Origin: a virus
Taxonomy: Duplodnaviria; Caudoviricetes
Length of the DNA: 51,355 bases
Direction: 5' to 3' (one strand)
Virus record (IMG/VR): IMGVR_UViG_3300033145_002956
Coordinates: 1-51,355 of that record
Position numbers and translations under genes: made by a program. Below are positions 1 to 51,355 of this stretch, in pieces (position 1 is the first letter of the stretch; every line of letters begins with the position of its first letter). The notes under the pieces are model-generated. The model made no database searches. It was not told the DNA's origin and worked only from the letters and a program-made list of their open reading frames with translations.

Positions 1-130
1 TGAGTTATACACATTAAACAATAGCATACTTTATTATAGACATTGTAATAAACAAATATAGAACATTATAGACATTGTAATAAAATATATAGAACTCAAC
101 CTCTCCATAAAAAAACATCTATCCTATCAT
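1..130. repeat. Left inverted terminal repeat (130 bp) containing a ~32-bp tandem repeat
   Basis: Reverse complement of 50982..51111 with one mismatch; internal tandem units ATTATAGACATTGTAATAAA...TATAGAAC at 33-64 and 65-95. Confidence 0.95.
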
Positions 131-627: not shown

Positions 628-1011
628 GTGTCTGTGGGTATGAGTGTGCATCATGTAACGAAGATCGAGGCTATGGCGAATGAGTCTTTGGGTTCAAAGG
701 TCTATAGTAGGCATTTAAAGGTCTATGCTAAGCAATGGTATGGAGAAGAACCAAGGGAAGTGTTGGACATTGTTCTCTTTTCAGATGATCTGGATAGACA
801 ACAGCTTGAGATTGAGGATACTAAGAAGCTTGCAGATCTTGTGTCCGATCTGCAAAATGCAAAGGTGGATGTTGAATATCCAGATGAACCAGAGCTGACG
901 CAGGGCTTTCAGAAGGTAACGATTACTTTTGCAGGAAAAGAATATACAGATGTAACTAATTTTATAGATGCAATACAAAAGAGGTTGTCGGGTGGTGATG
1001 GAGATGAATGA
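628..1011 (+). CDS. Hypothetical protein
   Basis: ORF abuts the previous stop codon; typical coding composition. Confidence 0.7.
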   Translation: MSVGMSVHHVTKIEAMANESLGSKVYSRHLKVYAKQWYGEEPREVLDIVLFSDDLDRQQLEIEDTKKLADLVSDLQNAKVDVEYPDEPELTQGFQKVTITFAGKEYTDVTNFIDAIQKRLSGGDGDE

Positions 1012-1186
1012 AGAAGAATTGAAGAAAACGCTACAGCGGTGTATGGCTTTGCTCGATGATGGAAGTATTATATCGGCTTCTGAGGAGATCAAAAAAGTAG
1101 CAATAAAGTTAGATGAAGAAGGGCTTGGAAGGACAATCAGAAGGATAAGGGAGGAAGTGTATGAAATGACTTGGAAGGACGAATAA
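998..1186 (+). CDS. Small helical hypothetical protein
   Basis: GGTGGTG SD; overlaps the upstream stop region. Confidence 0.6.
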   Translation: MEMNEEELKKTLQRCMALLDDGSIISASEEIKKVAIKLDEEGLGRTIRRIREEVYEMTWKDE

Positions 1187-1284
1187 GTGATGGGAATGAA
1201 GAACCGAAAAAGGAGATTTTTTATTGAGGAGTTTGGTATAACTCCTAAATTTTTGAAGAAAATAAAAAATGGAAAGGTGAGAGT

Positions 1285-2085
1285 ATGAAAAAAATAAAAG
1301 TGCCTCTTCCGAGAGGTAATAAAATGACCCTTATTTTAGGGGTTGGAGATAAAAAACAGCGTTTTTCCTGTAAAATAAGGAAAAGCGTTGCGAGTAGCTA
1401 TGGCATGTCTGGAAATATGATATGTCCTAAGTGTTTTGTTACTGCTGAGGGAGGGCATGAAATCCATAAAGTGGAGCAATACTACATTTGTCCTTCTTGT
1501 CAGAATATATACAAAAAGGGAGAATTAAAGTATAGGGTAACCGATGGCGTGGTCTATTCTGAAGAGGAGAGAAAAAAGTATTTAGGGTGGATCACGAGGC
1601 AGGAGATTGAGATGGTGGGTGTGGTTTCTCTTGATGAGATCCTACCAGCTATTGAGCTTGTGAGTACTACTTATGAGCTGTTTGGCGAACCAAAGGCTAT
1701 GCAGGGTATCTATACTTATCTGGATACTGAAAGGTTAGGTATTCTTGTAGAATTTGGTTACTATGGTGAGATAAGAAAGGGGATCATCATACCTTCTGCA
1801 AAGAAGTTGTTGATCCTCATGCTTAGGGATTCTGTGCTTGTTAAAGAGCCTGCTATTGAGATCGGTAATGGTGGTAGTGAGAGTTATAATACTCTGTTTA
1901 AGTTTGCTGAAAGTGAGAAAGGAACGAAACTCGTTGAGTTTCTTGAAGCTGTGCGTAATGGTACTTTAGATGAAATAAAGCCTGTTGAAGAACCCGAAAC
2001 TGTGAGTGAGGATGAGTTGGATACTTCTATTTTTGGGGAGATAGGTAAAGAGAAAAAGAAGATAGTTTTAACGGTGGAAAAATGA
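1285..2085 (+). CDS. ku: Ku-like DNA end-binding protein with zinc ribbon
   Basis: Collinear with prokaryotic Ku core by eye: CxxC...QYYICPSC bridge, VVYSEEE..., EIEMVGVVSLDEI.P...TYEL, GILVEFGYYGEIRKGII...LLILML; acidic tail; lies next to a ligase gene. Confidence 0.7.
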   Translation: MKKIKVPLPRGNKMTLILGVGDKKQRFSCKIRKSVASSYGMSGNMICPKCFVTAEGGHEIHKVEQYYICPSCQNIYKKGELKYRVTDGVVYSEEERKKYLGWITRQEIEMVGVVSLDEILPAIELVSTTYELFGEPKAMQGIYTYLDTERLGILVEFGYYGEIRKGIIIPSAKKLLILMLRDSVLVKEPAIEIGNGGSESYNTLFKFAESEKGTKLVEFLEAVRNGTLDEIKPVEEPETVSEDELDTSIFGEIGKEKKKIVLTVEK

Positions 2086-2216
2086 AATACTTTGAGATAT
2101 TTATTGATGATTTGAAAGAGGGTGTACGAAAGAAGGTATTGAGTTTTCTTGGGCTTAAAGATGCGAAAGAAGGTAATTACGATGTTTTTCCTCTTTTTAT
2201 TTTGGAGGAGGATTAA

Positions 2217-3017
2217 ATGTCTTCTCTTTCTTTTTTTGAACCTATGTTAGCTGAGTCTGTTGCTCAGATACCTAAGAATGATGATTGTCGTTATATCTTC
2301 GAGGAAAAATATGATGGCATGAGAGTTTTGCTTGTAAACAATAAGCTTGTGTCAAGGCATGGAACGAGGGTCGATCATGCTTTTCCAGAGTTACAGAAGG
2401 AGTTAAAGAAATTGTCGAAACATTCTGTTTTTGATGGTGAGCTTGTAATTTTCAGAGAGGGTTTGTGTGACTTCGATCTTGTTCAGGAAAGGAGAAGTAT
2501 GGATAATCCTTTTACTATTAAATATTATAGTAATCGGTATCCTGCTCGGCTTATGCTGTTTGATTGTCTTGTCTGGGAGGGAGAACCTGTAATGAACTAT
2601 TGTCTATGGGAGAGAAAAAAGCTTCTTAACGATGTTTCCTTTTTGAACGGTGGCTTTGTTCAAACTGTTCCTTTCTCGTCAGTGGTGAATGAGATTGTGA
2701 GAGATGGTATCGAAGGAGTTATCGCAAAAGATGTAAAGCAGGGGTATTACTGTGGCAAAAGACTCTGGAAAAAATATAGATTTATGTCGGAAACAGTGGT
2801 TAAGATCGTTGAGGTCGAGGATCATCCAGCGGGTTGTCTGTTGCATACTGAAGAAGGATGGAGGATTAATTTGGCAGGTAAGAAACGAACAGAGAAAGCA
2901 AAAAGGCTATTTAGAGAGGGAGAGTTTAAAGTCGAAATTTCCTACTTTGAGAAAACAAAAAAAGGAGAGCTTCGATTTGCTAAGTTTAAAAGATTTTTGG
3001 AACGAGAGAGGTTTTGA
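2217..3017 (+). CDS. lig: Minimal ATP-dependent DNA ligase
   Basis: Motif I EEKYDGMR, III FDGELV, IIIa LFDCL, IV EGVIAKD, V WKKYR, VI LRFAKFKRF. Confidence 0.93.
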   Translation: MSSLSFFEPMLAESVAQIPKNDDCRYIFEEKYDGMRVLLVNNKLVSRHGTRVDHAFPELQKELKKLSKHSVFDGELVIFREGLCDFDLVQERRSMDNPFTIKYYSNRYPARLMLFDCLVWEGEPVMNYCLWERKKLLNDVSFLNGGFVQTVPFSSVVNEIVRDGIEGVIAKDVKQGYYCGKRLWKKYRFMSETVVKIVEVEDHPAGCLLHTEEGWRINLAGKKRTEKAKRLFREGEFKVEISYFEKTKKGELRFAKFKRFLERERF

Positions 3018-3028
3018 AAGTGATCGTT

Positions 3029-3172
3029 ATGGAAAAAAAATATGAAAGAAAAAAGTGTTATCTGTGCGGATGGGAAATACCAGAAGGAGAAGAATACTAT
3101 TTAAATGGAAAAACATTATGCTGGCAATGCTGGAAGGGAGAAGTGGAAAATCCAGAGCATAGGGTGATCTAA
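3029..3172 (+). CDS. Small zinc-finger protein (47 aa, not in ORF track)
   Basis: MEKKYERKKCYLCG...LCWQCW; two CxxC pairs. Confidence 0.65.
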   Translation: MEKKYERKKCYLCGWEIPEGEEYYLNGKTLCWQCWKGEVENPEHRVI

Positions 3173-3221
3173 TGAGAAAACAGATCGTTGAATTTACAAA
3201 CAGATTTTTGGAGGGGTAAAA

Positions 3222-3410
3222 ATGACAGAAAAGAGAGTGATACAAAAACGAAAGGGAGAGTATCCTGTGTTATTTTGTGTGATTCCAGCTTTTTTTAGGC
3301 ATGTCTTTGGTTTTGATAAAGGTGATGTTCTCGATTGGAGTCTTGAAAATGTGGAAGGTGAGTGGTGCATAGTTATACGGTCTGAGAAAATAAGGTTTGA
3401 GGGGATTTAA
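3222..3410 (+). CDS. AbrB/MazE-like swapped-hairpin DNA-binding protein
   Basis: CVIPAFFRHVFGFDKGDVLDW resembles the AbrB pattern. Confidence 0.6.
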   Translation: MTEKRVIQKRKGEYPVLFCVIPAFFRHVFGFDKGDVLDWSLENVEGEWCIVIRSEKIRFEGI

Positions 3411-3592
3411 TGAAAGGGGCTAAGTGTGATCGATGTGGAAAGTTTAGAAAAGTTTGTTGTGAGTTAACTGCTTTCGATCCTGTTGAGGAAGAGCAGATAG
3501 CGTTCTTAGGGGATATTTGCTTGGATTGTATAGAAGATTTAAAAGAGTGGATGAAGATTCCTCCTTCACTAAAAAAGGTACGGGGTGAATAA
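3410..3592 (+). CDS. Small zinc-finger protein
   Basis: CDRCG...DICLDC. Confidence 0.7.
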   Translation: MKGAKCDRCGKFRKVCCELTAFDPVEEEQIAFLGDICLDCIEDLKEWMKIPPSLKKVRGE

Positions 3593-4028
3593 AGTGAAAA
3601 AGAAAATATTTGTATCGCTGGCAGTGTCTTTGATGATGTTGTCAGTGGTGCTGGCTCAGGAGGATGGAGCAGAAAAGATCGATACTCTTGTCATAAGGAC
3701 AAGGGTGGGTACTGACTACTACTGTGGTAGGTTGATCTACACAGGTATTAGTAGTGTGGAAGTTGTAAAAAATGGTAGAGCTGTTCATGATGTAGGGCTT
3801 CCTGCAGGGTTTGAGGTTGAAGTGCGAGTGCATAAATGGAATAACATAGACTTCGCTACTTGGGATCGAGACTTTGGTTGGTGTGGTGGCTCTCTTGTGG
3901 TTTTCCAGGGCGACTACGATGGGATCTATGTCATTGATGTCTTGCTCTACAAATATGGGACTCTAATAGATACGAAGCACATAGTTTACAACTTCCAAGA
4001 AGAGTCGTATAAACTGAGGTTCATCTGA
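3585..4028 (+). CDS. Secreted or exported beta-rich protein
   Basis: N-terminal signal peptide KKKIFVSLAVSLMMLSVVLA-Q; followed by a T-rich terminator. Confidence 0.7.
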   Translation: MNKVKKKIFVSLAVSLMMLSVVLAQEDGAEKIDTLVIRTRVGTDYYCGRLIYTGISSVEVVKNGRAVHDVGLPAGFEVEVRVHKWNNIDFATWDRDFGWCGGSLVVFQGDYDGIYVIDVLLYKYGTLIDTKHIVYNFQEESYKLRFI

Positions 4029-4057
4029 ACCTCTTTTTATTTTTTGAAGGTGATAAC

Positions 4058-4378
4058 ATGTTGAAAATAGAGAATTGTAAAATAAGAAAAGAAGATGATG
4101 AGATGTTTGTGGAGTATTGGGATCAAGGTAGGATGATGGGGTATGTTGCTTGGTTACACCGTTGGCATGGCGGTCCAAATCTTTTTGGTTGGCTTGGTAC
4201 TGTCTCTGATGGCTGGATAGTCGTTTTGAATAATGGCAGGGGCTACTTGTTTCCTCTTCATGGCAGGACAGGTGTTGTTGCCACGAGATATGTTGCTGAG
4301 AAGTTTGGTCTCGGACTTGATGATGCTAAATTCTACGCAGAGGTTTTGGCAAAGTGCTGGGAGTGTCAGGTGGTATAG
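4058..4378 (+). CDS. Hypothetical protein
   Basis: GGTGA SD, operon context. Confidence 0.7.
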   Translation: MLKIENCKIRKEDDEMFVEYWDQGRMMGYVAWLHRWHGGPNLFGWLGTVSDGWIVVLNNGRGYLFPLHGRTGVVATRYVAEKFGLGLDDAKFYAEVLAKCWECQVV

Positions 4379-5116: not shown

Positions 5117-5474
5117 TCCTTCAAAGATGTTAAAAAAGTTGCATATTTTTATGGTGCTGTGGTTCTTTGGTTGTATGTGCTTCTCGGTGTATATAGAGAA
5201 CTGGATAGTTCTTCTGTGGCAGTTACTTTGCTTGGCTTTTTTTGGATTGTACTTTTATGAGTATCGTTATGCTGAGAAGATGTTTGCAGATTTTGATGGG
5301 ATGATAAAGGAGGGTATTGAGATTATGAGTAGGAGTGCAGAGGTAAGAAGAGCTATTGTTATCGAGCATTTAAAGTTGCTTAGAAAATACCAGGTGCAAG
5401 AGGAATTACTGCAATCCTTACAGAAGGATAATTGGGTTCTCCGGATGGGAGTCCTTGATTATGGAGGGAGATAA
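5109..5474 (+). CDS. Membrane protein with two TM segments and a coiled coil
   Basis: Two hydrophobic stretches at the N-terminus. Confidence 0.65.
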   Translation: MSDPSKMLKKLHIFMVLWFFGCMCFSVYIENWIVLLWQLLCLAFFGLYFYEYRYAEKMFADFDGMIKEGIEIMSRSAEVRRAIVIEHLKLLRKYQVQEELLQSLQKDNWVLRMGVLDYGGR

Positions 5475-5853
5475 TATTAAGATTTTGTACTTTGGTGACT
5501 TTGATCCTTCTGGAATGGACATTCAAAGGTATCTGAGAGAACGTTTGAGAGATGAGTTTGGTGTGGATGCAGATGTTAGGAGAATTGCTATAACCGATGA
5601 ACAAATCCAGAAGTATAACATACCTCCTGCTCCTGCAAAGAGGTCAGATACGAGGTTTAATGGCTTCGTAGATGAACATGGAGATCGTGCTGTGGAGTTG
5701 GATGCTATCGAGCCTAATGTACTGCAGGAAATAATTAGGAGTTCTATTAGGGCTTTGTTTGATGAGAAGATTTACCAAGAACAAAAACTGGAGGAGAAAG
5801 AGAAGCAGCAGGAGATTAAGAGAATGATTGAAGAATATTTTGGAGGTGCTTAA
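5455..5853 (+). CDS. Topoisomerase VI-A/JetD-like TOPRIM C-terminal fragment
   Basis: ILYFGDFDPSG DxD motif, RIAIT..QI..Y..P, VELDAIEP; the N-terminal half of the domain is missing. Confidence 0.75.
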   Translation: MIMEGDNIKILYFGDFDPSGMDIQRYLRERLRDEFGVDADVRRIAITDEQIQKYNIPPAPAKRSDTRFNGFVDEHGDRAVELDAIEPNVLQEIIRSSIRALFDEKIYQEQKLEEKEKQQEIKRMIEEYFGGA

Positions 5854-8213: not shown

Positions 8214-8619
8214 TGAGAGGGAGGAGAGAAGAAAGTTTCGTGTCGCTGCGGAAAAGCTACATAAGCTTGTTCCTGCTTACAAGGTCTGGGTTGAGGACAT
8301 AGATGATGAAATAATTTCTAAGCTTAATGAGACTACAAAGGGAAAGATCGTTATAACTCGTCTGGGAAAGTATATTGTGCAGTGGTTTTATACGAATCCT
8401 AAGGCTATTACTCCTCAGAAGCGACAGAATACTTTTTATATCTTGCCTATTGGTATATATGAAAATCCTGAAGATAATGAGAAAATCAAAGTCGTTGATG
8501 AGGAAGGGACTGAGAAGATTATAGATGTGAGTGAGTCGAGTCGTCGTAGTAGTGCGAGAATCGTTGCCAGGATGCTTGCTTCATTGCACCTGTTAGATAA
8601 GTATCGCCGTTTTAGATAG
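8200..8619 (+). CDS. Hypothetical protein
   Basis: GGAGAGG SD before ATG at 8200. Confidence 0.65.
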   Translation: MAEYNEREERRKFRVAAEKLHKLVPAYKVWVEDIDDEIISKLNETTKGKIVITRLGKYIVQWFYTNPKAITPQKRQNTFYILPIGIYENPEDNEKIKVVDEEGTEKIIDVSESSRRSSARIVARMLASLHLLDKYRRFR

Positions 8620-8967
8620 TCTAAAAATTTCTTTTTATTATTCTTTTTTGTTTAGTCTCTTTTTGTTGATTATGATAAATAAGTTTTTGTGTGTTATATA
8701 TAGAAAAATGTATCTCTTTGTAAGGTACTATTTCTCTGTTACTTCTGTTTACTTTGAGTTTATCCTTTGGTGGTGTTCTTGTATTAAGTTTTATTAAATA
8801 CATATATAAAAAAAGTTGTAATTTAGTATCCATAAGCTTTATAAATGAAGGATACTAATTAATATCACATAAGAATTAAGTATATCCTTCTCCAAAGGAT
8901 ATATTTATAAGCATATATTAAATTGGAGATGTTACAATGGTATTATTTTGTTCGTTCTTAGGCGGCG

Positions 8968-10917
8968 GTGAGTATGACTGAAAAGCAAAGTGTCCGAAAG
9001 TGTCCCAAAAAATTTGCGAAAGTCACGAAAAAAGAAGGCGAAAATCGGCTTCTTTCTCAAGGTGTCCCAAAAAAGAAGCCGAAATCTGCCTCCTTTGATC
9101 AGGTGTCCCAACCTTTATTTTTGAAAAAAATCCTTATATTAAAAGGGCAGGGCTATTCCATTCGTCAGATTTCTGATCTGCTCAAAATTCCTAAGTCAAC
9201 CATATCTCGTTGGATAAAGAAGGCGAGGGAGACTATTGTTTTTGATTTGCAGGAGGTGGGACAGTGGGACAGTGGGACACCTGATAGTGGGACACCTATT
9301 TCTGGGATCATCGAGAAGATCGATATGAAGAGTGTTCCTGGCACGATCGATAAGAGAGGTGAGTACGGTGAGTTGCTTGATTTTCGTATGATCCCTATTA
9401 CTTATCAGTTGTTTTTTGCTAGATACGGTTTTCTTCCAAAGCATATATTTCCTATAAAAAAAGGAGAGTTGTCTTATAGTTCTTATCATACTGTGTATGT
9501 GCTTAAATTGTCTTCTGGAGAGGTTGTGTATTCTTATGAGGATTTTTCTGGTCGTAAGGGGTGTCATCTGGATGGGGTGGCGAAGAGGATTAATTGTGGT
9601 AGCGAGAACGGAAACCTTAAATTTGATGACTTTCTTTTATTAAGTAGAGAATATACGTTATCTCAAATCCTTGAAAATGAAGGTGATGTCTTGAAACTTT
9701 TAGGTTTTGGTGTTAAAGATATACATGAGCTTCAGAGTGATATGTCTGAAGGGGGTCTTAATTTTGATAATATCCAAAAAGTGGACTTAAAAGAAGCTTT
9801 TAATCAAGTAGCTCCTCGTGTTGTGGGAAATGAGGATGTGAAGGAGATTTTAACGTATTCAGTGGTGAGGAGAGATAGCAGAGATCCTCGTGGTTCATCT
9901 GTTCCTATCTGTGTTTTTGCTAATAGTGGAGAGGGGAAAACGTATCTACTCGATGATCTTTCTAGGGTGTTTTCAGCAGATATGTATCGTGCTGAGGACT
10001 TAACGCCTGCGGCTTTGGGTATGGTTGATCCTTCTACTGGAGAAGTGAAATACACAGGTCTTTCTGATATTATTCTGGTTGATGAGATTGACAAGGCTCA
10101 AGCAAAGACTATCTCTCTTCTTCTTGAAATTGCGGGTCTTGAAATTGGAAAAAGGGTAAGGTATGGTGTTAAATTTACAAAGGAGACGGGTTCTTTGCTA
10201 CTCTCTACTTTTCTCTTGAGTTCTAAACTTGGTATTTTTGATGAGGATAAGGGAGGTTCTTGGGGGCGAGTTGGGAATATTCATAGGCAGTATTTACGAA
10301 GGAATGTGCTTCTCAGGCTTCAGCAGGAAAGTAAAGAGTTGGATAATGAGTTGGTAGAGAAGGTTTTAGAGGGGCAGAGTGAGGAAGAGGTCTATGAATA
10401 TGAGACACTTGAGCTGTCAAAGCTTTTGTGTTTGTCTAAATTGTTTTTGATGACTTGTCAGTTTAAGATTAAGGATGTTGAAAAGATAAAGAGTATGTAT
10501 CTCTCTGAAGTTAGTGGCTTCTCCTTTGCTGGCTCTACGAATTGGTATAGAACCTTATATCGTCTTATAAAACTGCTTGCTGAGGGTAGAGCTTTGTGTC
10601 ATGGAGTAGATAGAGTAGATATTGATAAAAAGGTGATTTATGTTCTTCCTGAGGATTTTAGGAGAGTCATTGACATCCTCAAAAAGCATGCTCGTTCTCT
10701 TGGTTTCTATAAGGGTGAGATCACGCATGTCGATGAGCCAGAAGTTGAGCCTCCAGAGGAAATGACTATTGTTGAGTTTGATGAAGAGCAGTTAAAAAGG
10801 GTAGAAACTCCTTTCTTTGAGAAATGTGGTTACTGTGGAGAAAATAAGTTGATTTCTTATTTCTATAATGGAAATTATATTTGTGATGCCTGTTTGAAGG
10901 ATTTGGGGATGTCGTGA
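8968..10917 (+). CDS. Replication protein: N-terminal HTH, divergent MCM-like AAA+ helicase, C-terminal zinc finger
   Basis: HTH GYSIRQISDLLKIPKSTISRW; APRVVGNEDVKE; Walker A ANSGEGKT; Walker B ILVDEIDK; AEGRAL; terminal CGYC..CDAC. Confidence 0.8.
   Translation: MSMTEKQSVRKCPKKFAKVTKKEGENRLLSQGVPKKKPKSASFDQVSQPLFLKKILILKGQGYSIRQISDLLKIPKSTISRWIKKARETIVFDLQEVGQWDSGTPDSGTPISGIIEKIDMKSVPGTIDKRGEYGELLDFRMIPITYQLFFARYGFLPKHIFPIKKGELSYSSYHTVYVLKLSSGEVVYSYEDFSGRKGCHLDGVAKRINCGSENGNLKFDDFLLLSREYTLSQILENEGDVLKLLGFGVKDIHELQSDMSEGGLNFDNIQKVDLKEAFNQVAPRVVGNEDVKEILTYSVVRRDSRDPRGSSVPICVFANSGEGKTYLLDDLSRVFSADMYRAEDLTPAALGMVDPSTGEVKYTGLSDIILVDEIDKAQAKTISLLLEIAGLEIGKRVRYGVKFTKETGSLLLSTFLLSSKLGIFDEDKGGSWGRVGNIHRQYLRRNVLLRLQQESKELDNELVEKVLEGQSEEEVYEYETLELSKLLCLSKLFLMTCQFKIKDVEKIKSMYLSEVSGFSFAGSTNWYRTLYRLIKLLAEGRALCHGVDRVDIDKKVIYVLPEDFRRVIDILKKHARSLGFYKGEITHVDEPEVEPPEEMTIVEFDEEQLKRVETPFFEKCGYCGENKLISYFYNGNYICDACLKDLGMS
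8991..9296. repeat. Iteron-like TGTCCCA/TGGGACA repeats inside the replication gene
   Basis: TGTCCCA at 9001, 9063, 9104 (TGTCCG at 8991); inverted TGGGACA at 9257, 9265, 9273, 9288. Confidence 0.65.
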
Positions 10918-12862: not shown

Positions 12863-14377
12863 ATGAAAATAAAAAAAATAGGAGCAATATTGGCAGGAGC
12901 TGTGATGATAGGTAGTGCGGTAGCTGCTGCTTGGGAACCAAGTGAAAACGTGGATTTTTTTATAAATCCTGATACAGGACAACCAAATGCTGTTATTGTA
13001 GTCGGTGCAAACGCTGCGGCTTCTGATGTAACGGCTGGTGCTTGGATTGCAGCACAGATAGGGAACATGGCTTTCAAAGAGGTAGAAGAGGAGATAGTAG
13101 GTAAATGGACTTGGGAAGGAGAAGGTGTAGGAGAGTTCGGAGCTAAATTCCTCATTCCTACAGATGATTTCCACGAACAATTAGATTCTTTGTACTGGAA
13201 AGATCTAGATGAGAACGAAGTATATTCTGAAGGGGATGTTCATGAGTGGATGTTACTGTGGCCGGGCTTGTTCGGGGCGGACTACAATTTGCAGATACTC
13301 CATGGGAACAACCCTGTAATGTACTGTGCTCACATACACGAGGGTGAGACTTTCAAGTTCTTAGGAAACTACTACTATCCAATAGAAATAAGTCCCGACC
13401 CAGATTTGTCAAGTTGGGGAATGACACAGGGGACTATACTCTGCGGAGATGTAGAAGAATATCCAGAGAGAACAATTTCTATAGGACCATACTATTTTGG
13501 AGACTATAAGGTAGTGTTCAAAGATATTTCTGTGTATGATCCTAGAAGAGTTTTGCTAACTATAGTAGATCCATCGGGAAAAGAACATTCAAGAATTGTA
13601 GAAGATGAAGGCAGTACAACTCTCTTTGATGATGAGGATAGACCTGTCTTTGTCTTGACTGTTAATGATATATTCTTGGGTGTGACTACCACCGAAGCTA
13701 AAATTCAGGTTACCACCTATGCTAACTACGGTGAAATAGAGTTTCCGAAGTACTGTCTCAGCGACGGGCTTGAATACTGGAATCTAAGTCTCTTCGATTG
13801 TGGACCCGAAGAAAATGGCTACAACATACATTTATGGTTTAGTGGATTCTTTGGGTACTATCCAGAATACTCTCCCTTGAATAGGACTATCAGCATACCA
13901 ACGTTCGATCTAACGAAGATAGAGAACTTCGACTATGTCTCCGGAAACTACATATCAGTCGATTTCGATGCAACCCCTCACTACAACGGAGAACTCATCT
14001 GGGATCTGAGCAAAGTTACTGTGACCCAGAAAACTGGTGACTTCACCAAGAAGTTGGTTCCCGTAGTAATAGACCCAACTCAGCTAGTAGTGAACGATGA
14101 CGAAGTAACAATTGCACACAAATTGAGTTACAACCTGATCTTAGTAGGTGGACCAGGGCTTGTACTTCAGCCAAATGGTGAAAAATTACCAGCGAACACA
14201 CTAACAAACGAAATTGTTGAAAATAATCTGTCAGCGGTAGACTGGTACACTGCTACTGGAGTATATGAGTATATTGAAGATGTGTACTCAGACAAAGATG
14301 TGATAATAGTAGCTGGCGCAGATAGGGTTGCTACCAAAAATGCAGTCATTGCTTTGCTGACTGATTTGAATGCATAA
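12863..14377 (+). CDS. S-layer protein (Methanococcales/Thermococcales S_layer_N/S_layer_C type)
   Basis: MKIKKIGAILAGAVMIGSAVAAA signal; IVVGANAAASDVTAGAWIAAQIG; C-terminal NLILVGGP..AN.LT and IIVAGADRVAT. Confidence 0.88.
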   Translation: MKIKKIGAILAGAVMIGSAVAAAWEPSENVDFFINPDTGQPNAVIVVGANAAASDVTAGAWIAAQIGNMAFKEVEEEIVGKWTWEGEGVGEFGAKFLIPTDDFHEQLDSLYWKDLDENEVYSEGDVHEWMLLWPGLFGADYNLQILHGNNPVMYCAHIHEGETFKFLGNYYYPIEISPDPDLSSWGMTQGTILCGDVEEYPERTISIGPYYFGDYKVVFKDISVYDPRRVLLTIVDPSGKEHSRIVEDEGSTTLFDDEDRPVFVLTVNDIFLGVTTTEAKIQVTTYANYGEIEFPKYCLSDGLEYWNLSLFDCGPEENGYNIHLWFSGFFGYYPEYSPLNRTISIPTFDLTKIENFDYVSGNYISVDFDATPHYNGELIWDLSKVTVTQKTGDFTKKLVPVVIDPTQLVVNDDEVTIAHKLSYNLILVGGPGLVLQPNGEKLPANTLTNEIVENNLSAVDWYTATGVYEYIEDVYSDKDVIIVAGADRVATKNAVIALLTDLNA

Positions 14378-25150: not shown

Positions 25151-25535
25151 GATGGTAGAGATTTTAGATCAATTAAAAAAATTAAAGGGTATCTCTACGG
25201 GGTCTGCCTCGGTTACTGTAGCTAGTACTGCACCTATTACTGGTACTGTGACTGTTGGGGTGAGTCTCCCCTTGACTGTACTTAGAGTTGGTCAGATCAC
25301 TGTAGGAGCTACAACCTCAAAAGCTCTTACTTCCTCGTGTACTTCTAAAGCTGTAGGTCTTGTTGCTCATTCTGGCAATGCAGGCAAGGTCTACTTTGGG
25401 CATAGTTCTTCAGTGTCAACTTCCAGCGGTTTTGAGTTGTCTGTACCTGTATCTTTATCTATTGATAATGCGAATAAAATTTATGTAATAGCAAGCACTT
25501 CGGGTCAGAAGGTCTGTTGGGTGGTGTTGAGATGA
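25143..25535 (+). CDS. Beta-rich virion protein (paralog of 35368..36046)
   Basis: GQITVGATTSKALTSSCTSK...NANKIYVIA...QKVCW. Confidence 0.75.
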   Translation: MPEMVEILDQLKKLKGISTGSASVTVASTAPITGTVTVGVSLPLTVLRVGQITVGATTSKALTSSCTSKAVGLVAHSGNAGKVYFGHSSSVSTSSGFELSVPVSLSIDNANKIYVIASTSGQKVCWVVLR

Positions 25536-26620
25536 CTGGTGAGATAAAGAAGAGGAATGATCTTTCTTTGCCTGGTCGAAGTAAGTGTCTTATTATGGAT
25601 GATGATTATATTTATTACAGTAAGGAGTCTGGTGGCAGTACAAGTGTGTACTATATTAGCATATTAGACTTCATAGGTGATAATGCTGAGACTCTTGTGG
25701 GCACAAGATCACCTAATACTGGTTATACTTCTATTTATACGATGAAACTCGATAAGTTGGATAATATGGATATTTTAATTGGTAGTATGTTGCAGTATAG
25801 TGATACAGATATAGACGAGCTTTTCTGCTATTGGAAAAATGTTCATACTTCCCCTACTCGACAGGATGGAGTTACTGGTTATTGGGAATATGAAGGGATG
25901 GTTGGATGGACAGGTGCGAATGATTACTGTTATTATATAGGTTCTTCTTCTGCTGGTGATCATGGTGTTGTTCGTGATAGGCGTTATGTGAACACAAGTG
26001 ATTATGCGTCCAAGTCTGGTGGCACTGGTGGTTTTGGTAATTGGCATGATGTAGCATGTAGTAATAGATATATCCATGGTATAGACTTGAGAGTTGGGGG
26101 TGTTGGACCTAGTGGGATCTATGGAATCTATGATGTTACTAAGTGGGATGATGCTTGGGAAGATTTTGAACTTTATTATGCTTCTATTTCTGGAAGATCA
26201 GGTATTATTTATGATAGTGTGAATGATAAATTTATAAGTTGGGGGTATAATAATCGTAGAATCTACATAGCTGATCCTACTTCTTCTAATCCTGATGCAG
26301 TATATTTTGACACTCCTTCTTCTGAGGGAAATGTTACTGATGTGAGATCCTATGGAGGATATCTATATATTGGTACTACTACAAATGGCAAGGTTTTGGT
26401 ATATGATATATCTGGTAATAAGAAAGGGGAGTATGATACGGGTGTTGCATCGCCAATAACAGCGGTTGCTGCAAATGCATCTTATGTTTGTGCAGTTTGT
26501 AGTGGATGGATGTATTTGTGGAAAATAGCAGGCGTTCCAGTTTCGGTTAATATGTCATTCCCTCTTGGTGGTCTTAAGTCTCGTTCGATTATCAGCTTTG
26601 CCAGAGGTGTATCAATATGA
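25532..26620 (+). CDS. Putative beta-propeller receptor-binding protein
   Basis: Y/G/S/D-rich blades (GGYLYIGTTTNGKVLVYDISG; ITAVAANASYVCAV). Confidence 0.6.
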   Translation: MTGEIKKRNDLSLPGRSKCLIMDDDYIYYSKESGGSTSVYYISILDFIGDNAETLVGTRSPNTGYTSIYTMKLDKLDNMDILIGSMLQYSDTDIDELFCYWKNVHTSPTRQDGVTGYWEYEGMVGWTGANDYCYYIGSSSAGDHGVVRDRRYVNTSDYASKSGGTGGFGNWHDVACSNRYIHGIDLRVGGVGPSGIYGIYDVTKWDDAWEDFELYYASISGRSGIIYDSVNDKFISWGYNNRRIYIADPTSSNPDAVYFDTPSSEGNVTDVRSYGGYLYIGTTTNGKVLVYDISGNKKGEYDTGVASPITAVAANASYVCAVCSGWMYLWKIAGVPVSVNMSFPLGGLKSRSIISFARGVSI

Positions 26621-27009
26621 AAAACAAAAAAATTGTTATTGGTCTTGGTGCTCTTGGAATAGGCCTCTACTTACTGAGTAGGGCAAGAGCTTGTCCTACA
26701 GATGTTCCCTGTGGGGTATCTGAAATCTGTGGAGATTGTCAGGCTATTTGTCAGGTAGGTGAGGCTTGCTATACTTGTGATGTTTCCTGCGAGCCTGTTT
26801 CTCAGCAGTGTGGAACTGCTGAGTGCGGGGTAGGTTGTGAGGTTTCTTGTGAGGAGACCTGTGAGCTTCGTTGTGAGGAAGGTTGTATGGTCGATTGCCA
26901 GACTGCATGTCAGGCTCAGTGCGAATGGATGACTGAGCAGTGCAAAATCTGTGAAACTCTTTGTGAAGTTCACTGTCAGGTAGGATGTGAAGTTTCTGTG
27001 GAGGGCTGA
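26617..27009 (+). CDS. Membrane-anchored Cys-x-x-x repeat protein (putative rSAM substrate)
   Basis: MKNKKIVIGLGALGIGLYLL followed by more than 20 Cys, mostly C-[E/Q]-x-x. Confidence 0.85.
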   Translation: MKNKKIVIGLGALGIGLYLLSRARACPTDVPCGVSEICGDCQAICQVGEACYTCDVSCEPVSQQCGTAECGVGCEVSCEETCELRCEEGCMVDCQTACQAQCEWMTEQCKICETLCEVHCQVGCEVSVEG

Positions 27010-27010
27010 A

Positions 27011-30000
27011 ATGGAGAAAAAAAATCTTGCTATCGTTGGAGGTTTAGGTGCATTGGCCGCTTATTTATATTATACTCGTAGACCTTGTGAGCTGTGTGAG
27101 ACCTGTGAGACTTCATGTGAGTTTTCATGTCAGACTTGTGAAATTTCTCAGGATGTTCCTGATCATTGTGGTCGAGATAATCCCGATTGGAAACATGATG
27201 ATCAGATTTATGATGTAACTTCTGTAATGAACTCTCAGGGCTACTCTGGATATTGGGAGTTAGATGTAACTATGCATAATGGACCATCAATCATATCTAT
27301 TTATGGGCCTGAAGAGCCTCCAGAGAGAAGTGATAAAGAAAAGGTACAATCGTGGCTTAGTGGTTTTGACTTGCATAGAGGCTTTTGTTATATTGATAAT
27401 AATTATTACTGGCTTAAATATCCAGCATCTTTGACACATACTCCTTACCCTCCGTGTCTTACTTGTGAAGTCGCCTGTGAGTCTTCATGTATGGAGAGTT
27501 GCGAGGTTCACTGCCAGACAGGTTGTGAGGTCTCCTGTGAGGCTGACTGTGAAACAGCATGTCAGGTTGGATGTGAGATTTCGGTAGAGCCACCGTCTCC
27601 TCCTGAGAAGAGGAAGTTAAGTATCCATGCAGAGGAGGGAGGCACAACTGATCCGTCTCCTGGCACTTACTATCATGATCCTTTGGATGTTGTTAGAGTC
27701 TTGGCAATTCCCAATTCAGGATATATCTTTGATCATTGGTCTCTTGGTGGGTCAAAGTTTTATCCTAATCCTATTGATGTGCTGATGGATGCTGATATTA
27801 ATTTGATAGCTTACTTTAAGGAAGCTCCATCGCCACCTTGTGGTACAGAGGATGTTCCTACACCTCCTCCTCCTGAACCTGGAACTGGGCATGTTTTAGT
27901 TACTTCTTTAGAGGTAGAGAGTGTTCCTGCTACTACAGAGGGAGGATGTAACACTTTACATTATGAAGCTGTGCTGACAAATCCAGGTTCTGAGTCTGCT
28001 ACTCACCATGTGGAGATTTACTTGGAGTATGGCGGTACTTCCTCAAGTATCTACAGTCAGGATGTTACTCTTGAGCCTGCTCAGACTAAATATCTTGCTA
28101 ATAATATCAGAATGTGCCTAAGTGGAACTTTAACCGTAGGTATGTCTGTAACTATTCGGGTAGTTGCAGAAAATGAAAAATCTGCGAGTGTTGTGCTTTA
28201 CCCCGGACCAACTCCTCCTCCTTGTACTACTCAGTGTGAGATCTGTGAAACTCCTTTTGAAATATGTGGTGTTATAGAAACATGTGGAACTTTAGAAACT
28301 TGTCCTACGGATGTTTGTAGAGTATCTTGTGAGATTCCCTCTGAAATTCTTCCTCCTTCAGGAATTGAAGTTTGGGTATTCTCTCAGCCAGAGGAGATTT
28401 GTCCTCCATGTCCTTTAGCTGCTAGGGCTGCTCAGGAGGTTGCTAGTGAGTATAATGTAGGTTTTAAGGATATAGATACCTTTACTGATGAGGGTAGAGT
28501 GTTGGCGGAGCAGTATAATGTTACGAGCACTCCTACTACAGTAGTCTTTGTAGATGGTACAGTAAAATGTAGATGGGAAGGGTATTTTTCCAATCTAAAG
28601 GATGTTCTTAGGGATTGTCTTGATCAGTATGTGTCAATTCCAGGTAGAAAGGTGCTGTTTTATATAGATGGTACTCTTGTGCATCAGGCGCAGGTAAGTT
28701 CTGTTCTCACCGAGTCTGCTTTTGATGAGTGTTACTTTGCACATGGTGGTAAGAGTGGTAATGAGGAGCTGGGTCCTCCTACTTTTGCAGGAGAGAAGTT
28801 TTGTTTTCATGCACATATTGGAGGAGAGTGGGGAGTGACTTATTCTCTCTTTGGATATACTGCTGAATCTGGGACTCATACTGTTACTGCGAAGCTTGTT
28901 GATGAAAATGGTAATGTTTTGGATACATGCTCGAAGACATATTCGATTGAAGCTCCTCCTCCTGAAGAGTGTACAATTGATGATGATGTCTGGAAACATG
29001 GAGATGAAGTCTATGATGTTACAGAAGTCATGAATCGTAATGGTTATGATGGGGAGTGGACTTTGTCAGTCACGATGCGTAATGGTCCGACAGGTATAGA
29101 GCTATTTGGTCCAACTGAGCCGCCTGCAAGGGAAGAGTTAAAGATGATAGCTTCATGGCAGGCGGGATATGATCTTCATAGGGGTTTCTGTCCAAAGGAC
29201 AATAATTATTATTGGTTACATTATCCTGTTGAGCTTACTCAGATTTCTGGCCCTACACCGTCTTCATCGGCTTTGTCTTTTGAGGGTGTTACAATAACTT
29301 CCTCTGGTGGTACTCATCCTTCAGATTTCGATGTTTCTGGGCGTGTTTCTAATCCAAATGCGTTTCCCGTAACTACAACAGTGGAAGCTTGTTATGCAGT
29401 TAAGGGGGGTTCCAATGAGACGGATTGTGATCTACAGACTCTTACTGTTCCTGCTCATGGTTCCTCCTCCTTTAGTATACACCTCCATGTTACGAATTGG
29501 TGCATTCCTCCTTATAAATGTGGTGGCAGTTGTACTGTTACTGTAACGGGAGATAAAATAGGGGATTATGTATCTCGGAAGTTTATGGCAGATGGAAGTG
29601 CCGAGCCTTATGAATATGGTGGAGGAACAGGTGAGCCTCCTGATGTTTGGTGTGAGATGTGTGATGTTTCCTGTGAGGAAACCTGCGAAATTTCTTGTCA
29701 GGCTGATTGCGAAGTTGCTTGCCAGACAGGCTGTGAAATCTCTTGTGAGGAAGAATGTGAATTATCCTGTCAATCTGCTTGTGAGTGGTGCATGATCTCT
29801 TGTGAAAACTGCGAAGGTCGCTGTGAAACAGGTTGTGAGGTTGCTTGCCAGACTTCTTGTGATGTTTCTTGTGAAGATTACTGTGAAAAGGCTTGTCAGG
29901 GAGCATGTGAGTTGGCTTGCGAAGAGAATTGTGAATATGCCTGTCAGGCTTACTGTGAATCTTACTGTCAAATTGGTTGCGAAGTGTCTTGTGAAACGGG

Positions 30001-30223
30001 TTGTATGGTTTCTTGTCAGGCGTCTTGTCAAGTGTCTTGTCAGGCTACCTGTGAAAGGGCTTGTCAAACCACTGCTGAATACTGTGCAACTCATTGTGAA
30101 ACCACCTGTGAGGCTATGTGCATGACGCATTGTGAGTATTGCGAAACCAGTTGCGAGCTTCAGTGTCAGACTATGTGTGAGGTAGGTCATGAAGGAGTGT
30201 GTGTAAATATAGAACCATATTAG
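27011..30223 (+). CDS. Large multidomain surface/virion protein with Cys-x-x-x tracts, InlB-B-repeat-like, Ig-like and thioredoxin domains
   Basis: N-terminal TM; four Cys tracts (about 46 Cys in the last); GTTDPSPGTY...A.PNSGY.FDHW; CPPC...STPT thioredoxin; duplicated ~90-aa domain. Confidence 0.85.
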   Translation: MEKKNLAIVGGLGALAAYLYYTRRPCELCETCETSCEFSCQTCEISQDVPDHCGRDNPDWKHDDQIYDVTSVMNSQGYSGYWELDVTMHNGPSIISIYGPEEPPERSDKEKVQSWLSGFDLHRGFCYIDNNYYWLKYPASLTHTPYPPCLTCEVACESSCMESCEVHCQTGCEVSCEADCETACQVGCEISVEPPSPPEKRKLSIHAEEGGTTDPSPGTYYHDPLDVVRVLAIPNSGYIFDHWSLGGSKFYPNPIDVLMDADINLIAYFKEAPSPPCGTEDVPTPPPPEPGTGHVLVTSLEVESVPATTEGGCNTLHYEAVLTNPGSESATHHVEIYLEYGGTSSSIYSQDVTLEPAQTKYLANNIRMCLSGTLTVGMSVTIRVVAENEKSASVVLYPGPTPPPCTTQCEICETPFEICGVIETCGTLETCPTDVCRVSCEIPSEILPPSGIEVWVFSQPEEICPPCPLAARAAQEVASEYNVGFKDIDTFTDEGRVLAEQYNVTSTPTTVVFVDGTVKCRWEGYFSNLKDVLRDCLDQYVSIPGRKVLFYIDGTLVHQAQVSSVLTESAFDECYFAHGGKSGNEELGPPTFAGEKFCFHAHIGGEWGVTYSLFGYTAESGTHTVTAKLVDENGNVLDTCSKTYSIEAPPPEECTIDDDVWKHGDEVYDVTEVMNRNGYDGEWTLSVTMRNGPTGIELFGPTEPPAREELKMIASWQAGYDLHRGFCPKDNNYYWLHYPVELTQISGPTPSSSALSFEGVTITSSGGTHPSDFDVSGRVSNPNAFPVTTTVEACYAVKGGSNETDCDLQTLTVPAHGSSSFSIHLHVTNWCIPPYKCGGSCTVTVTGDKIGDYVSRKFMADGSAEPYEYGGGTGEPPDVWCEMCDVSCEETCEISCQADCEVACQTGCEISCEEECELSCQSACEWCMISCENCEGRCETGCEVACQTSCDVSCEDYCEKACQGACELACEENCEYACQAYCESYCQIGCEVSCETGCMVSCQASCQVSCQATCERACQTTAEYCATHCETTCEAMCMTHCEYCETSCELQCQTMCEVGHEGVCVNIEPY

Positions 30224-30231
30224 GTGATAAG

Positions 30232-34898: not shown

Positions 34899-35375
34899 AT
34901 GAGAGATATTGTTATGTTTCGCAGAAGAGACTGGGCTTCATTGATTATACAGGCAGAGTTAACAGGTAAAAAAATAGCTGAAGCTGGGAGTGTTCAGTAT
35001 GAAACTGTTGTTAGGGAAAAGCCAAAAACTACAGAAATTTATGCTCAGAAAGACCTTACTCTTGATAGTAACTCAGTTTTTGTCGATGTCAAAGGATATG
35101 GGAAGGTTCATGAAATATTTTTAATGACAGATAGCCAGAACTACAAAATTTATGTCAATGTTGATGGAAAAGATCTTTATGATGATACTTATTCTCATTT
35201 AAGAGAAATGAGTAGATTCTTAAATGAGATCGGAACGAGAACAAGTGGCTCTTATTATATTCTTTCAATTGTAGATATTCCTTTCTCTACATCTTTATAT
35301 ATTCGTGTTGAACCTTCTGAGTCTATCGTTTTTAAAGAGGTCTCAATAAAGTATGAGGTAGGTAATAGTGTCTAA
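34899..35375 (+). CDS. Beta-rich virion protein (paralog of the C-terminal domain of 24488)
   Basis: NYKIYVNVDGKDLYDDTY...YYILSI...ESIVF....IKYEV. Confidence 0.75.
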   Translation: MRDIVMFRRRDWASLIIQAELTGKKIAEAGSVQYETVVREKPKTTEIYAQKDLTLDSNSVFVDVKGYGKVHEIFLMTDSQNYKIYVNVDGKDLYDDTYSHLREMSRFLNEIGTRTSGSYYILSIVDIPFSTSLYIRVEPSESIVFKEVSIKYEVGNSV

Positions 35376-36046
35376 CGTCAATGATATAAATACAGATGCT
35401 TCTGGAGACATCCAAGTCGATGTTAAAACTATGCCTTCTATTTCTGTAGCTACTGGTGTGGTTAAGGTTTCTAAAATTTTATCTACCTCTCCTGTTACTG
35501 GTACGGTCTCTGTTGGAAATATTAATTTAGATGCTTCCTCCGATGTTCAGGTCGATGTTAAAACTATGCCTACTGTGAATGCTACGGGATATGTCACGGT
35601 CAAAAGTCTCTGTTGGAAATATTAATTTAGATGCTTCCTCTGATGTTCAGGTCGATGTTAAAACTATGCCTACTGTGAATGCTACGGGATATGTCACTGT
35701 AAAGAACTTCCCAGCTACTCAAACTGTAAGTGGTAGTGTGTCTCTAGTGGGAACTTCTCCAGTGGATGCAGATATTCAGCCTTTGTCTTCTATAAAAACA
35801 GGTCAGATTACTGTAGGAGCTACAACCTCAAAAGCTCTTACTTCCTCGTGTACTTCCAAGTGTGTTTCTGTAGAGCCTCATTCTGCAAATACTGGAAAGG
35901 TGTATGTTGGTGGGGATTCTTCGGTGACTACATCTACAGGTTGGGAACTCGTAGCACCTATTTCGTTTGATGTCGATAATGCTAGCAAGATCTATGTCAT
36001 AGCAAACCAAGCAAATCAGAAAGTTTGTTGGGCGGTGTTGGGATGA
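35368..36046 (+). CDS. Repeat-containing virion protein; +1 frameshift near 35605
   Basis: Near-identical repeat with 100-nt period (35506 and 35606); removing one A from the AAAA run joins the two ORFs. Confidence 0.65.
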
Positions 36047-40729: not shown

Positions 40730-40738
40730 GGTGATTGA

Positions 40739-41206: not shown

Positions 41207-41442
41207 AATTAGATGCCTTCATACCAGATTATGAGCCTCATAAAAGATTACCTGTAAAATTGTCTAAAAAGTCACCTAAAAAATTACCTAATCAGTGCGT
41301 AGTAGATCATGATTGTGAGGGGGAAGTTAGAATAAGAGAGACGAATCGTGAGGGTGTTGTGATACCCCTATGTGACAAACACTATAAAAGATTGGTTAAG
41401 GTTGGTCTTGATATAAACTTGTTTATGTCTGGAGGTAAATAA
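41203..41442 (+). CDS. Small putative zinc-binding protein
   Basis: C....DC...LCDKH. Confidence 0.6.
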   Translation: MKLDAFIPDYEPHKRLPVKLSKKSPKKLPNQCVVDHDCEGEVRIRETNREGVVIPLCDKHYKRLVKVGLDINLFMSGGK

Positions 41443-41443
41443 G

Positions 41444-42553: not shown

Positions 42554-42555
42554 AT

Positions 42556-42861: not shown

Positions 42862-42863
42862 TT

Positions 42864-48399: not shown

Positions 48400-48427
48400 T
48401 TATTCACCTCTTTTATTCAGTTCATCC

Positions 48428-50981: not shown

Positions 50982-51111
50982 ATGATAGGATAGATGGTTT
51001 TTTATGGAGAGGTTGAGTTCTATATATTTTATTACAATGTCTATAATGTTCTATATTTGTTTATTACAATGTCTATAATAAAGTATGCTATTGTTTAATG
51101 TGTATAACTCA
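50982..51111. repeat. Right inverted terminal repeat
   Basis: Reverse complement of 1..130. Confidence 0.95.
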
Positions 51112-51334
51112 ATGCTATTGTTTAATGTGTATAACTCAGTAGATAAGACAGAATCCAAAACAAGACAGGATACGCCCCCGAATAGCAAATAGAACTGGAA
51201 TGTCTGTCAGTTTTGCTTTCCTTTGGAAAGCAAAACTGACAGACATTCCAGTTCTTTTTTTTTTTTTTTGGCGTATCCTGTCTTGTTTTGGATTCTGTCT
51301 TATCTACTGAGTTATACACATTAAACAATAGCAT
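51112..51334. other. Terminal fold-back hairpin: TTT loop, 31-bp stem, 14/14-nt mismatched bubble, 65-bp outer stem
   Basis: 51191-51221 pairs with 51225-51255; bubble CCCGAATAGCAAAT faces T14; 51112-51176 pairs with 51270-51334. Confidence 0.9.
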
Positions 51335-51355
51335 ACTTTATTATAGACATTGTAA

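Follow-up and report, generated by a model that had tools for sequence, protein, structure and literature searches.

A predicted virus-borne pair of Ku and ATP-dependent ligase with a zinc-ribbon bridge in a probable archaeal virus

Described Ku-ligase systems and the viral locus

In bacteria such as Mycobacterium and Bacillus subtilis a Ku-fold end binder stands beside an ATP-dependent ligase, LigD. Here we describe a related pair of genes in a virus assigned to the Caudoviricetes (IMG/VR record IMGVR_UViG_3300033145_002956): an open reading frame (ORF) for a predicted, highly divergent Ku protein and, downstream of it, one for a small ATP-dependent DNA ligase. The stretch of DNA that was analysed, below called the window, is the complete virus record of 51,355 bp. 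The system itself, Ku plus an ATP-dependent ligase, is known; what appears to be new, as far as the models go, is that a virus carries both parts, that the zinc-ribbon bridge is intact, that the ligase is minimal and that the surface predicted to recruit it is a different one.

An archaeal example of non-homologous end joining (NHEJ) with a Ku homodimer and LigD, also cited in PMC7719229, is Methanocella paludicola. The first-pass annotation of the window took Ku to be rare in archaea, and this agrees with a report of Ku together with a ligase domain in 10 of 243 archaeal genomes (PMC7719229). It also stated that the mycobacteriophages Omega and Corndog use Ku for genome end joining; these phages are indeed reported to circularise their own genomes through the LigD of the host (PMC12848934). 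A survey from 2025 (PMC11936186) lists 19 Ku sequences from archaea and 11 from viruses, the viral ones without exception from actinobacteriophages. A literature search returned no account of Ku in archaeal viruses; the supplements of the two surveys (PMC7719229, PMC11936186) may list members of the clade described here.

The window pair resembles the bacterial system in its parts: a putative end binder with a predicted Ku fold is encoded beside an ATP-dependent ligase whose nearest profile is TIGR02779, and one gene encodes a Ku of the size usual for homodimers (about 250-270 amino acids, aa). The model matches the Ku of B. subtilis and M. tuberculosis with a template modelling (TM) score by target of 0.57-0.59. 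The differences are that the window ligase is a 266-aa protein without the AEP and phosphoesterase domains of LigD and scores far below the LigD equivalog cut-offs, that the window Ku keeps the full four-cysteine zinc ribbon, and that the pair is virus-borne. Further, the predicted contact of the window ligase is with the core and the N-terminus of Ku, whereas bacterial LigD is reported to be recruited by the C-terminal tail of Ku (PMC12848934).

Like the Ku proteins of the mycobacteriophages Omega (gp206), Corndog (gp87) and Dylan, the window Ku is virus-encoded, and the Dylan protein is its best match in BFVD. We take gp87 to be the Ku gene of Corndog, although its GenBank record gives a hypothetical protein. 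The window Ku and gp87 can be aligned colinearly, at about 15% identity. Omega and Corndog are reported to depend on the LigD of their host (PMC12848934), whereas the window virus carries its own ligase.

A further likeness is to Gam of phage Mu, a phage-borne double-strand end binder of the Ku superfamily. Gam is much smaller than the window Ku, and a Pfam scan of the window Ku at E <= 1 contained no Gam family. Gam is reported to be able to support end joining together with a ligase (PMC8987985). It is mainly an exonuclease shield, with the NAD-dependent ligase of the host, unlike the window Ku with its own ligase.

The eukaryotic system of Ku70/Ku80 and DNA ligase IV-XRCC4 follows the same scheme, in which a ring loads on the DNA end and recruits an ATP-dependent ligase, and the top match of the window protein in PDB is Ku70. 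Eukaryotic Ku is a heterodimer of proteins of about 600-730 aa with vWA and C-terminal domains, and the ligase is recruited through BRCT and XRCC4 modules. These modules are absent from the window pair.

The predicted Ku fold and its zinc-ribbon bridge

Searched by its own sequence, the window protein gives few matches. A word-based homolog search returned just two close homologs, a single-sequence search of PDB sequences found no relative (only ribosomal protein S27, at E 1.5), and the match to the Pfam Ku profile PF02735 has an E-value of 0.035 and 14.4 bits, with residues 58-137 on profile positions 31-114 of 190. When a profile of three sequences was searched against 1.84 billion representatives, 59 proteins reached E <= 0.001, and 45 of these reached E <= 1e-10; the 59 proteins have lengths of 135-279 aa. 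The family alignment (A2) holds 51 sequences: the window protein, P0002 and 49 of the 59 relatives. Left out were P0001, which is 98% identical, the fragments P0003, P0038, P0048, P0050, P0054, P0057 and P0058, and the weakest relatives, P0059 and P0060.

On this alignment AlphaFold2 gave a model with a predicted local distance difference test score (pLDDT) of 90.5 and a predicted TM score (pTM) of 0.86; on the three-sequence alignment (A1) there was no usable model (pLDDT 32.8). The model on A2 shows the core fold of the Ku superfamily (PF02735, COG1273), in which a bridge is inserted into a beta-barrel of seven strands and an arm lies at the C-terminus. Foldseek against PDB returned 109 matches at E <= 0.001, and all 31 that were listed are Ku chains at probability 1.00, human Ku70/80 included. 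The best is Ku70 (7zyg_A, E 5e-9); the Ku of B. subtilis (9vnq_A) is matched at E 1.1e-8 with a TM by target of 0.59, and that of M. tuberculosis (9i91_B) at E 1.6e-8 with 0.57. Identity to the solved Ku chains is 8-14%, and the root mean square deviation (RMSD) of the superpositions is 13-25 Å. Against BFVD there are two matches at E <= 0.001, both at probability 1.00: the Ku of Mycobacterium phage Dylan (E 4.1e-10) and a Ku homolog of an uncultured Caudovirales virus. The next match has an E-value of 0.011.

The relatives were also compared with Ku directly. PF02735 is matched at E <= 0.1 by 15 of the 51 family members, the best at E 6.3e-8. Ten relatives were scanned again: seven match Ku, and three of these score above the cut-off of 25 bits, with matches that span profile positions 2-175 of 190. 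These three are the Ku proteins of two of the loci described below, L003 (27.9 bits) and L005 (28.2 bits), and P0018 (29.4 bits); their link to the window protein has E-values of 1e-17 to 1e-25. When the family was aligned with Corndog gp87 by hhalign, the alignment was colinear over 213 columns (probability 48.5%, E 1.8e-4). In the ESM Atlas the neighbour clusters are 83-95% viral, and in two clusters PF02735 is assigned to 56-58% of the members, which means that the clade is partly tagged already by automatic annotation; a structure search in the same atlas returned bacterial Ku at TM 0.50 and 0.48.

Judged by the model and the sequences of its family, the ORF is a real, highly divergent Ku. 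This reading is not due to chance, because there are 59 relatives at E <= 0.001 and the gene order is conserved. The first-pass annotation had called the protein Ku-like after an alignment by eye, and in this it is borne out: AlphaFold2 predicts a Ku-like fold, Foldseek finds Ku in both PDB and BFVD, and relatives pass the PF02735 threshold.

In the model, an insertion of residues 34-92 sits between barrel strands 2 (25-33) and 3 (107-115), which is the place of the Ku bridge, and it is here, after barrel strand 2, that the CxxC...CxxC pattern is found. C47, C50, C69 and C72 are kept in 50, 49, 50 and 47 of the 51 members, respectively, and all four in 46. A zinc ribbon had already been noticed in the bridge region of the window protein; the conservation of the four cysteines and their place in the modelled insertion confirm it. 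On the evidence of the sequences, the ribbon is the Ku bridge itself and not an extra domain, because the match of the relatives to the Pfam Ku profile continues across the ribbon at about the length of the profile. For the L003 protein, 168 residues fall on 173 profile positions. The alignment with Corndog gp87 includes the second knuckle, which falls on CEDC, whereas the first knuckle, conserved in the window family, is not conserved in gp87.

The four-cysteine ribbon would be expected to bind zinc. Krishna and Aravind reportedly derived the Ku bridge region from a zinc ribbon in 2010, and the conserved CxxC...CxxC in the bridge fits such an origin. Other near-invariant positions in the family are Q65, Y67, R84, E131, D182 and F219. 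In the most conserved motif of the family (residues 181-187, see Table 1), R181 is found in 41 and D182 in 46 of the 51 members, while position 187 is R or K in 50. The C-terminal tail has a conserved tip (columns 411-447 of A2), to which some members add a KKxxVxV strand.

The ligase, its linkage to Ku and the predicted complex

The ligase ORF matches PF01068 at E 2.2e-24, with 86.7 bits against a cut-off of 26.2. The best NCBIfam model is TIGR02779, NHEJ_ligase_lig (E 8.1e-29), whose equivalog cut-off of 227.75 bits is not reached by the 100.8 bits of the match; nor is the cut-off of the LigD model TIGR02776 (72.5 vs 373.2 bits). Residues 210-260 give weak scores for OB domains, 18.9 bits for PF14743 (cut-off 28) and 13.4 bits for PF04679 (cut-off 27.5). 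Outside the ligase clade, the closest homologs have domains of the LigD type or are named LigD. Scans of the 266-aa ligase, of the neighbouring ORFs and of the other window ORFs that were covered revealed neither a polymerase (AEP) nor a phosphoesterase domain.

In all nine aligned ligases K31, D33, G34, E75, D116, E166, G167, K171, K186 and R253 are invariant. K31 is the predicted adenylation site; it opens K31-Y-D-G-M-R36, an instance of the ligase motif I, KxDGxR, and E75, D116, E166-G167-x3-K171 and K186 correspond to motifs III, IIIa, IV and V. R253 lies in the stretch with the weak OB-domain scores. Because the catalytic residues are invariant, the ligase looks intact and active from its sequence. 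Its earlier description as a minimal ATP-dependent ligase can be kept, given a PF01068 score above the cut-off and an intact motif set. A further conserved residue, N97, lies in the loop 96-104 and is invariant in the seven Ku-linked ligases, but absent from two LigD-like outgroups.

The search for related loci yielded six from metagenome contigs (L002-L007) and none from the viral contig and genome contig collections. A ligase homolog with 29-33% identity to the window ligase lies downstream of the Ku homolog in 6/6 of these loci, so that Ku adjoins an ATP-dependent ligase, in the manner of a two-component operon, there as well as in the window. L003 equals L004 and L006 equals L007 in both genes, which leaves four distinct elements besides the window, with Ku proteins 27-33% identical to that of the window. 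The spacer between Ku and ligase measures 21 nucleotides (nt) in L006/L007, 611 nt in L005 and about 1.1-1.2 kb in L002 and L003, and holds unrelated small ORFs. Ku and ligase stay together while their surroundings change. Further, the pairwise identities of Ku and of ligase are correlated (Spearman 0.94 over 10 pairs); this parallel divergence shows co-inheritance and not more.

With the window Ku as query, tblastn missed L002 at E 1e-4, a locus that was found with alignment A5. No match was obtained by tblastn of the window Ku and P0018 against 50,697 deposited phage and virus records. Among the PHROGs, the window Ku matches 0 families; three families are matched by 1/51 members each, and there is no family for the clade.

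The complex was predicted with two copies of Ku (alignment A2) and one ligase (alignment A6), the ligase being the scored partner. The interaction prediction score from aligned errors (ipSAE) was 0.78, 0.77 and 0.76 in three runs, and the best of three controls had 0.01. The ipSAE mark is reached by 58 of 80 solved complexes and by 2 of 110 mismatched pairs, counts that hold roughly for this job, in which the score covers the ligase only and three chains with their own alignments were used. The runs share at least 89% of the contacts, and the pLDDT of the partner is at least 84.

In the predicted complex, the ligase touches one Ku copy at residues 87, 182, 184-188, 213 and 217, and the other at 4, 6-10, 32, 36 and 38-41. 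The ligase side consists of residues 40-54, 71, 96-107 and 119, with 96-100 and 102-104 as the contacts within the loop 96-104. The interface therefore uses the most conserved Ku motif (181-187) and a clade-specific loop of the ligase, and the model supports binding of Ku to its cognate ligase. It is unlikely that the score reflects recall from the memory of the prediction model, because identity to solved Ku is low (8-14%) and we know of no solved complex with this interface. Formation of a Ku ring would be expected from homology. The C-terminal tail of Ku is absent from the confident predicted interface, and likely binds another partner, such as a clamp or a host factor.

The earlier view of the two genes as a pair thus gains support from gene order in 6/6 loci, from parallel divergence and from a strongly positive complex prediction.

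The features of the locus and of the genome ends are collected in Table 1. The genes of the window are almost all on the + strand. The leader upstream of Ku may act as a promoter, and its ribosome-binding site is placed 7 nt 5' of the Ku ATG. While the coordinates of the Ku-like and the ligase ORF in the first-pass annotation are exact, its statement that the ligase follows Ku needs a correction: the ligase does lie downstream, but not directly, as the gap of 131 nt is filled by a 44-aa ORF, for which domain and family scans gave no match. With overlapping or abutting start and stop codons, the genes of the Ku-ligase string are translationally coupled, and the 52-aa CxxC protein may be in one transcription unit with the ligase.

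Table 1. Coordinates of the features discussed in the text (positions in the window).
Feature	Position	Strand	Description
Leader of the Ku-ligase string	1187..1284	+	98-nt intergenic; terminator-like hairpin 1227-1246, A/T-rich stretch, GGTGA ribosome-binding site
Predicted divergent Ku	1285..2085	+	266 aa, ATG; beta-barrel core, zinc-ribbon bridge, helical C-terminal arm, K/E-rich tail
Four-cysteine zinc ribbon of Ku	1423..1500	+	C47-x2-C50 (CPKC) ... C69-x2-C72 (CPSC) in the bridge insertion, residues 34-92
Most conserved motif of the Ku family	1825..1845	+	R181-D182-x-x-L-[IV]-[KR]187; predicted main ligase contact
C-terminal tail of Ku	2017..2085	+	[ST]-[FW]-L-[DE]-type motif (here LDTSIFGE) after a K/E-rich linker, then KKKIVLTVEK
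Small ORF	2082..2216	+	44 aa; ATGA overlap with the Ku stop, TAAATG junction with the ligase start
ATP-dependent DNA ligase	2217..3017	+	266 aa; nucleotidyltransferase and short OB-like C-terminal domain
Ligase loop 96-104	2502..2528	+	DNPFTIKYY; predicted insertion at the Ku dimer surface
CxxC...CxxC protein	3014..3172	+	52 aa; 4-nt overlap with the ligase stop; weak PHROG matches only
Left inverted terminal repeat	1..130	.	99% complementary to 50982-51111
Right end	50982..51355	.	Inverted repeat 50982-51111, fold-back palindrome, 48-nt copy of the window start

Strains of the virus vary around the Ku gene. The strain of run X3 has about 97% identity over 199-2233, and in it the stretches 987-1013, 1152-1186 and 2048-2106 are swapped for 261, 512 and 177 other letters, respectively; these are hot spots of gene-cassette exchange. 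The last of them takes in part of the tail region of Ku. In run X5 there is an insertion at 2205-2211. Because it varies between these strains, the region of the 44-aa ORF is probably not core to the Ku-ligase module.

Proposed role, genome ends and virus context

We consider it likely that the two proteins form a viral Ku-ligase module, complete in itself, which binds the ends of double-strand DNA and seals them. Ku, taken by homology to be a homodimer ring with a four-cysteine zinc-ribbon bridge, would thread onto a double-strand DNA end. The ligase would dock on a composite surface, made up of the RDxxLI[KR] motif of one Ku and the N-terminal strand region of the other, and would seal the juxtaposed ends. 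The likely substrates would be the double-strand ends of the virus itself, with joining or circularisation of an incoming linear genome that has inverted terminal repeats, and, second, breaks made by host nucleases, which would be rejoined. In terms of specific role, the module might serve genome circularisation, repair of nuclease cuts or maintenance of inverted-repeat termini; the first-pass annotation had suggested protection or sealing of hairpin ends and repair of CRISPR or restriction cuts, which would likewise be possible roles. Ring formation and zinc binding are inferred, as are the binding of ends, a stimulating effect on ligation and the natural substrate. Because few archaea have Ku, the virus would bring both Ku and a ligase, and the virus of a host without NHEJ would need a ligase of its own. 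The nearest precedent is that of Omega and Corndog, which supply Ku but use the LigD of the host.

Several points weigh against this reading. The window protein itself stays under the Pfam Ku gathering cut-off (14.4 vs 25 bits), a PDB profile search gave Ku marginally (E 0.81 and 0.87), behind zinc-finger and RNA polymerase matches, and among the re-scanned relatives P0004, P0005 and P0017 have no Ku match at E <= 0.1. Gene contexts can be read for just four distinct elements beyond the window, and any pair of genes that share their genomes over time would be expected to diverge in step. The complex is a model, not a measurement; its conserved Ku tail lies outside the predicted interface, which would make either the interface or the analogy to bacteria incomplete. 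Finally, no polymerase or nuclease domain for end processing was found with the pair in the window ORFs scanned; only compatible or blunt ends would be joinable, unless enzymes of the host or other viral enzymes help.

A different division of labour, in which Ku gives Gam-like end protection only and the ligase is an ordinary replication or repair ligase acting without Ku, we hold to be rather unlikely. Many viruses carry ligases for replication, the window virus has helicase-like, primase and exonuclease genes of its own, the pair comes without end-processing domains, and the main role of the Ku homolog Mu Gam is reported to be protection from RecBCD (PMC8987985). However, an independent ligase is difficult to reconcile with its staying by Ku in 6/6 loci despite changes among the intervening and surrounding genes, with a strong predicted interface that is separated from the controls and lies on conserved, clade-specific residues, and with a profile nearest to the ligase domains of NHEJ. 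Even Gam itself promotes end joining with the ligase of E. coli, according to a title cited in PMC8987985.

The ends of the window bear on a second alternative. Next to the right inverted repeat there is a palindrome with arms of 110 nt (51112-51221 / 51225-51334) that are 93% complementary, and the 48-nt 'direct terminal repeat' of the record is the window start, read again after the palindrome. In an independent contig of run X3 the repeat boundary at 130 is reproduced, followed by the reverse complement of 50953-50981. These ends fit a linear genome that has inverted terminal repeats and was read head to head across its termini, via hairpin ends or replicative junctions. The left palindrome arm has a 27-nt tandem duplication (51085-51111 / 51112-51138), and one arm has a poly-T run at about 51255-51271, where the other arm has about 14 nt of mixed sequence.

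On this basis the pair could serve telomere maintenance, by holding the fold-back ends of a covalently closed hairpin linear genome and sealing them once replication or resolution has taken place, in place of general end joining. The inverted repeats with their palindrome, the 48-nt repeat produced by reading through it, the independently reproduced boundary and the position of the module, 1.3 kb from a window end with an inverted repeat, agree with such a role, as does a bacterial Ku structure reported on hairpin DNA (8v53). We nevertheless regard it as unlikely. No Holliday-junction resolvase, protelomerase or protein-primed polymerase was found among 49 further ORFs scanned and the larger window ORFs; no fold-back is present at the contig ends of L002, L004 and L006, which need not be genome ends; and the palindromic junction could be an artefact of assembly or amplification. 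Further, the replication genes of the relatives are very different (PolB in one; PCNA and an RFC-like loader in another), which argues for a general-purpose module.

That the protein is no functional Ku but a zinc-ribbon DNA-binding protein, Ku-like by convergence or model bias, is very improbable: the 8-14% identity to solved Ku with its large RMSD, the sub-threshold single-sequence Pfam match and the poor model from three sequences could be read in this way, but Foldseek gives probability 1.00 for Ku only, in two libraries (for PDB among the matches listed), relatives exceed the Pfam Ku cut-off almost end to end, the hhalign alignment with phage Ku is colinear, the ESM Atlas neighbour clusters carry PF02735, and a high RMSD is what a mobile bridge would give when a monomer is modelled.

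The host of the virus is likely archaeal. Named members of the Ku clade are found only on contigs of metagenome-assembled genomes labelled Thermococci archaeon and Candidatus Thorarchaeota archaeon. At 12863-14377 the window has a gene for a Methanococcales-type S-layer protein (TIGR01564, 71.8 bits against a cut-off of 25; PF05124, E 2.5e-22), which hints at the host group or at a mimic on the virion surface. Two intein-bearing genes and a weak MCM-like helicase in the window also point to archaea; the helicase-like protein had no match in the homolog search. The window primase matches bacterial phages and one Methanofastidiosa virus, and the named homologs of a DegT protein, at about 50-53% identity, are mostly archaeal, with others from Chloroflexota and Bipolaricaulota. 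No terminase, portal or capsid family was recognised in protein family scans of the window. Close relatives of the virus occur in a marine-sediment run, and fragments in hydrothermal-vent runs; the best-matching run may come from the sample in which the virus was found, and none of the listed runs with its sequence is an RNA run. Among the related loci, L002 encodes a family B polymerase (PolB) with a LAGLIDADG intein at 826-4089, plus a serine recombinase, while L006 and L007 encode PCNA and an RFC-like loader (in L006 at 8464-10002).

A number of other features of the window may be mentioned. Downstream of the Ku-ligase string, there is a 132-aa protein at 5455-5853 whose match to phrog_6247, 'DNA topoisomerase', falls on the C-terminal portion of that family (E 1.7e-31), and which has weak Toprim-like matches to JetD_C and DUF2399. 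In the region 26617-30223, ORFs of 130 and 1078 aa contain dozens of repeats with periods of 12 and 24 nt that encode C-x3-C-x3-C (rich in CE/CQ), and this cysteine ladder also has a match to a thioredoxin domain (phrog_22, E 2.9e-7). Two genes bear inteins: a radical SAM protein with Hint and LAGLIDADG domains at 30199-32580, and a type I phosphodiesterase-like protein with a splicing domain and LAGLIDADG at 37955-40003 (- strand). A cluster for sugar modification at 40076-44923 comprises a family 2 glycosyltransferase, a hexapeptide-repeat transferase (probably 40739-41206), a DegT aminotransferase and two NAD-dependent epimerase/dehydratases. Repeats are found at 35384-35703 (tandem units of 100 nt inside ORFs at 35368-36046), at 25290-25536 / 35801-36047 (a segment of 247 nt, 72% identical, common to two ORF ends) and at 48415-48541 / 49174-49300 (a direct repeat of 127 nt, 97% identical, in a minus-strand region).

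Returning to the self-contained end-joining module, a more far-reaching version of it is possible, and we put it forward tentatively: the pair may represent a distinct, virus-specific NHEJ lineage in archaeal viruses, in which an ancestral, metal-binding zinc-ribbon Ku works with a stripped-down ligase through an interface on the Ku core. In the model, this interface is unlike the recruitment through a C-terminal tail, a polymerase domain or BRCT that is used in cells. If such a lineage is real, there is a viral reservoir of Ku in the archaeal domain, which would be relevant to the proposed viral origin of cellular and eukaryotic Ku, and the two proteins, which add up to about 530 aa, would make a complete system for end joining of unusually small size.

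More generally, a lineage of viruses with both components would demonstrate that hosts without end joining can be supplied with the whole system by a virus. This bears on how linear viral genomes survive host nucleases and cuts by CRISPR or restriction systems, as well as on the origin of Ku, and on whether the zinc-ribbon ancestry of its bridge survives in a metal-binding form. With 266 + 266 aa, the pair also lends itself to biochemical and structural studies, and to use as a portable tool for end joining in laboratory strains that lack NHEJ.

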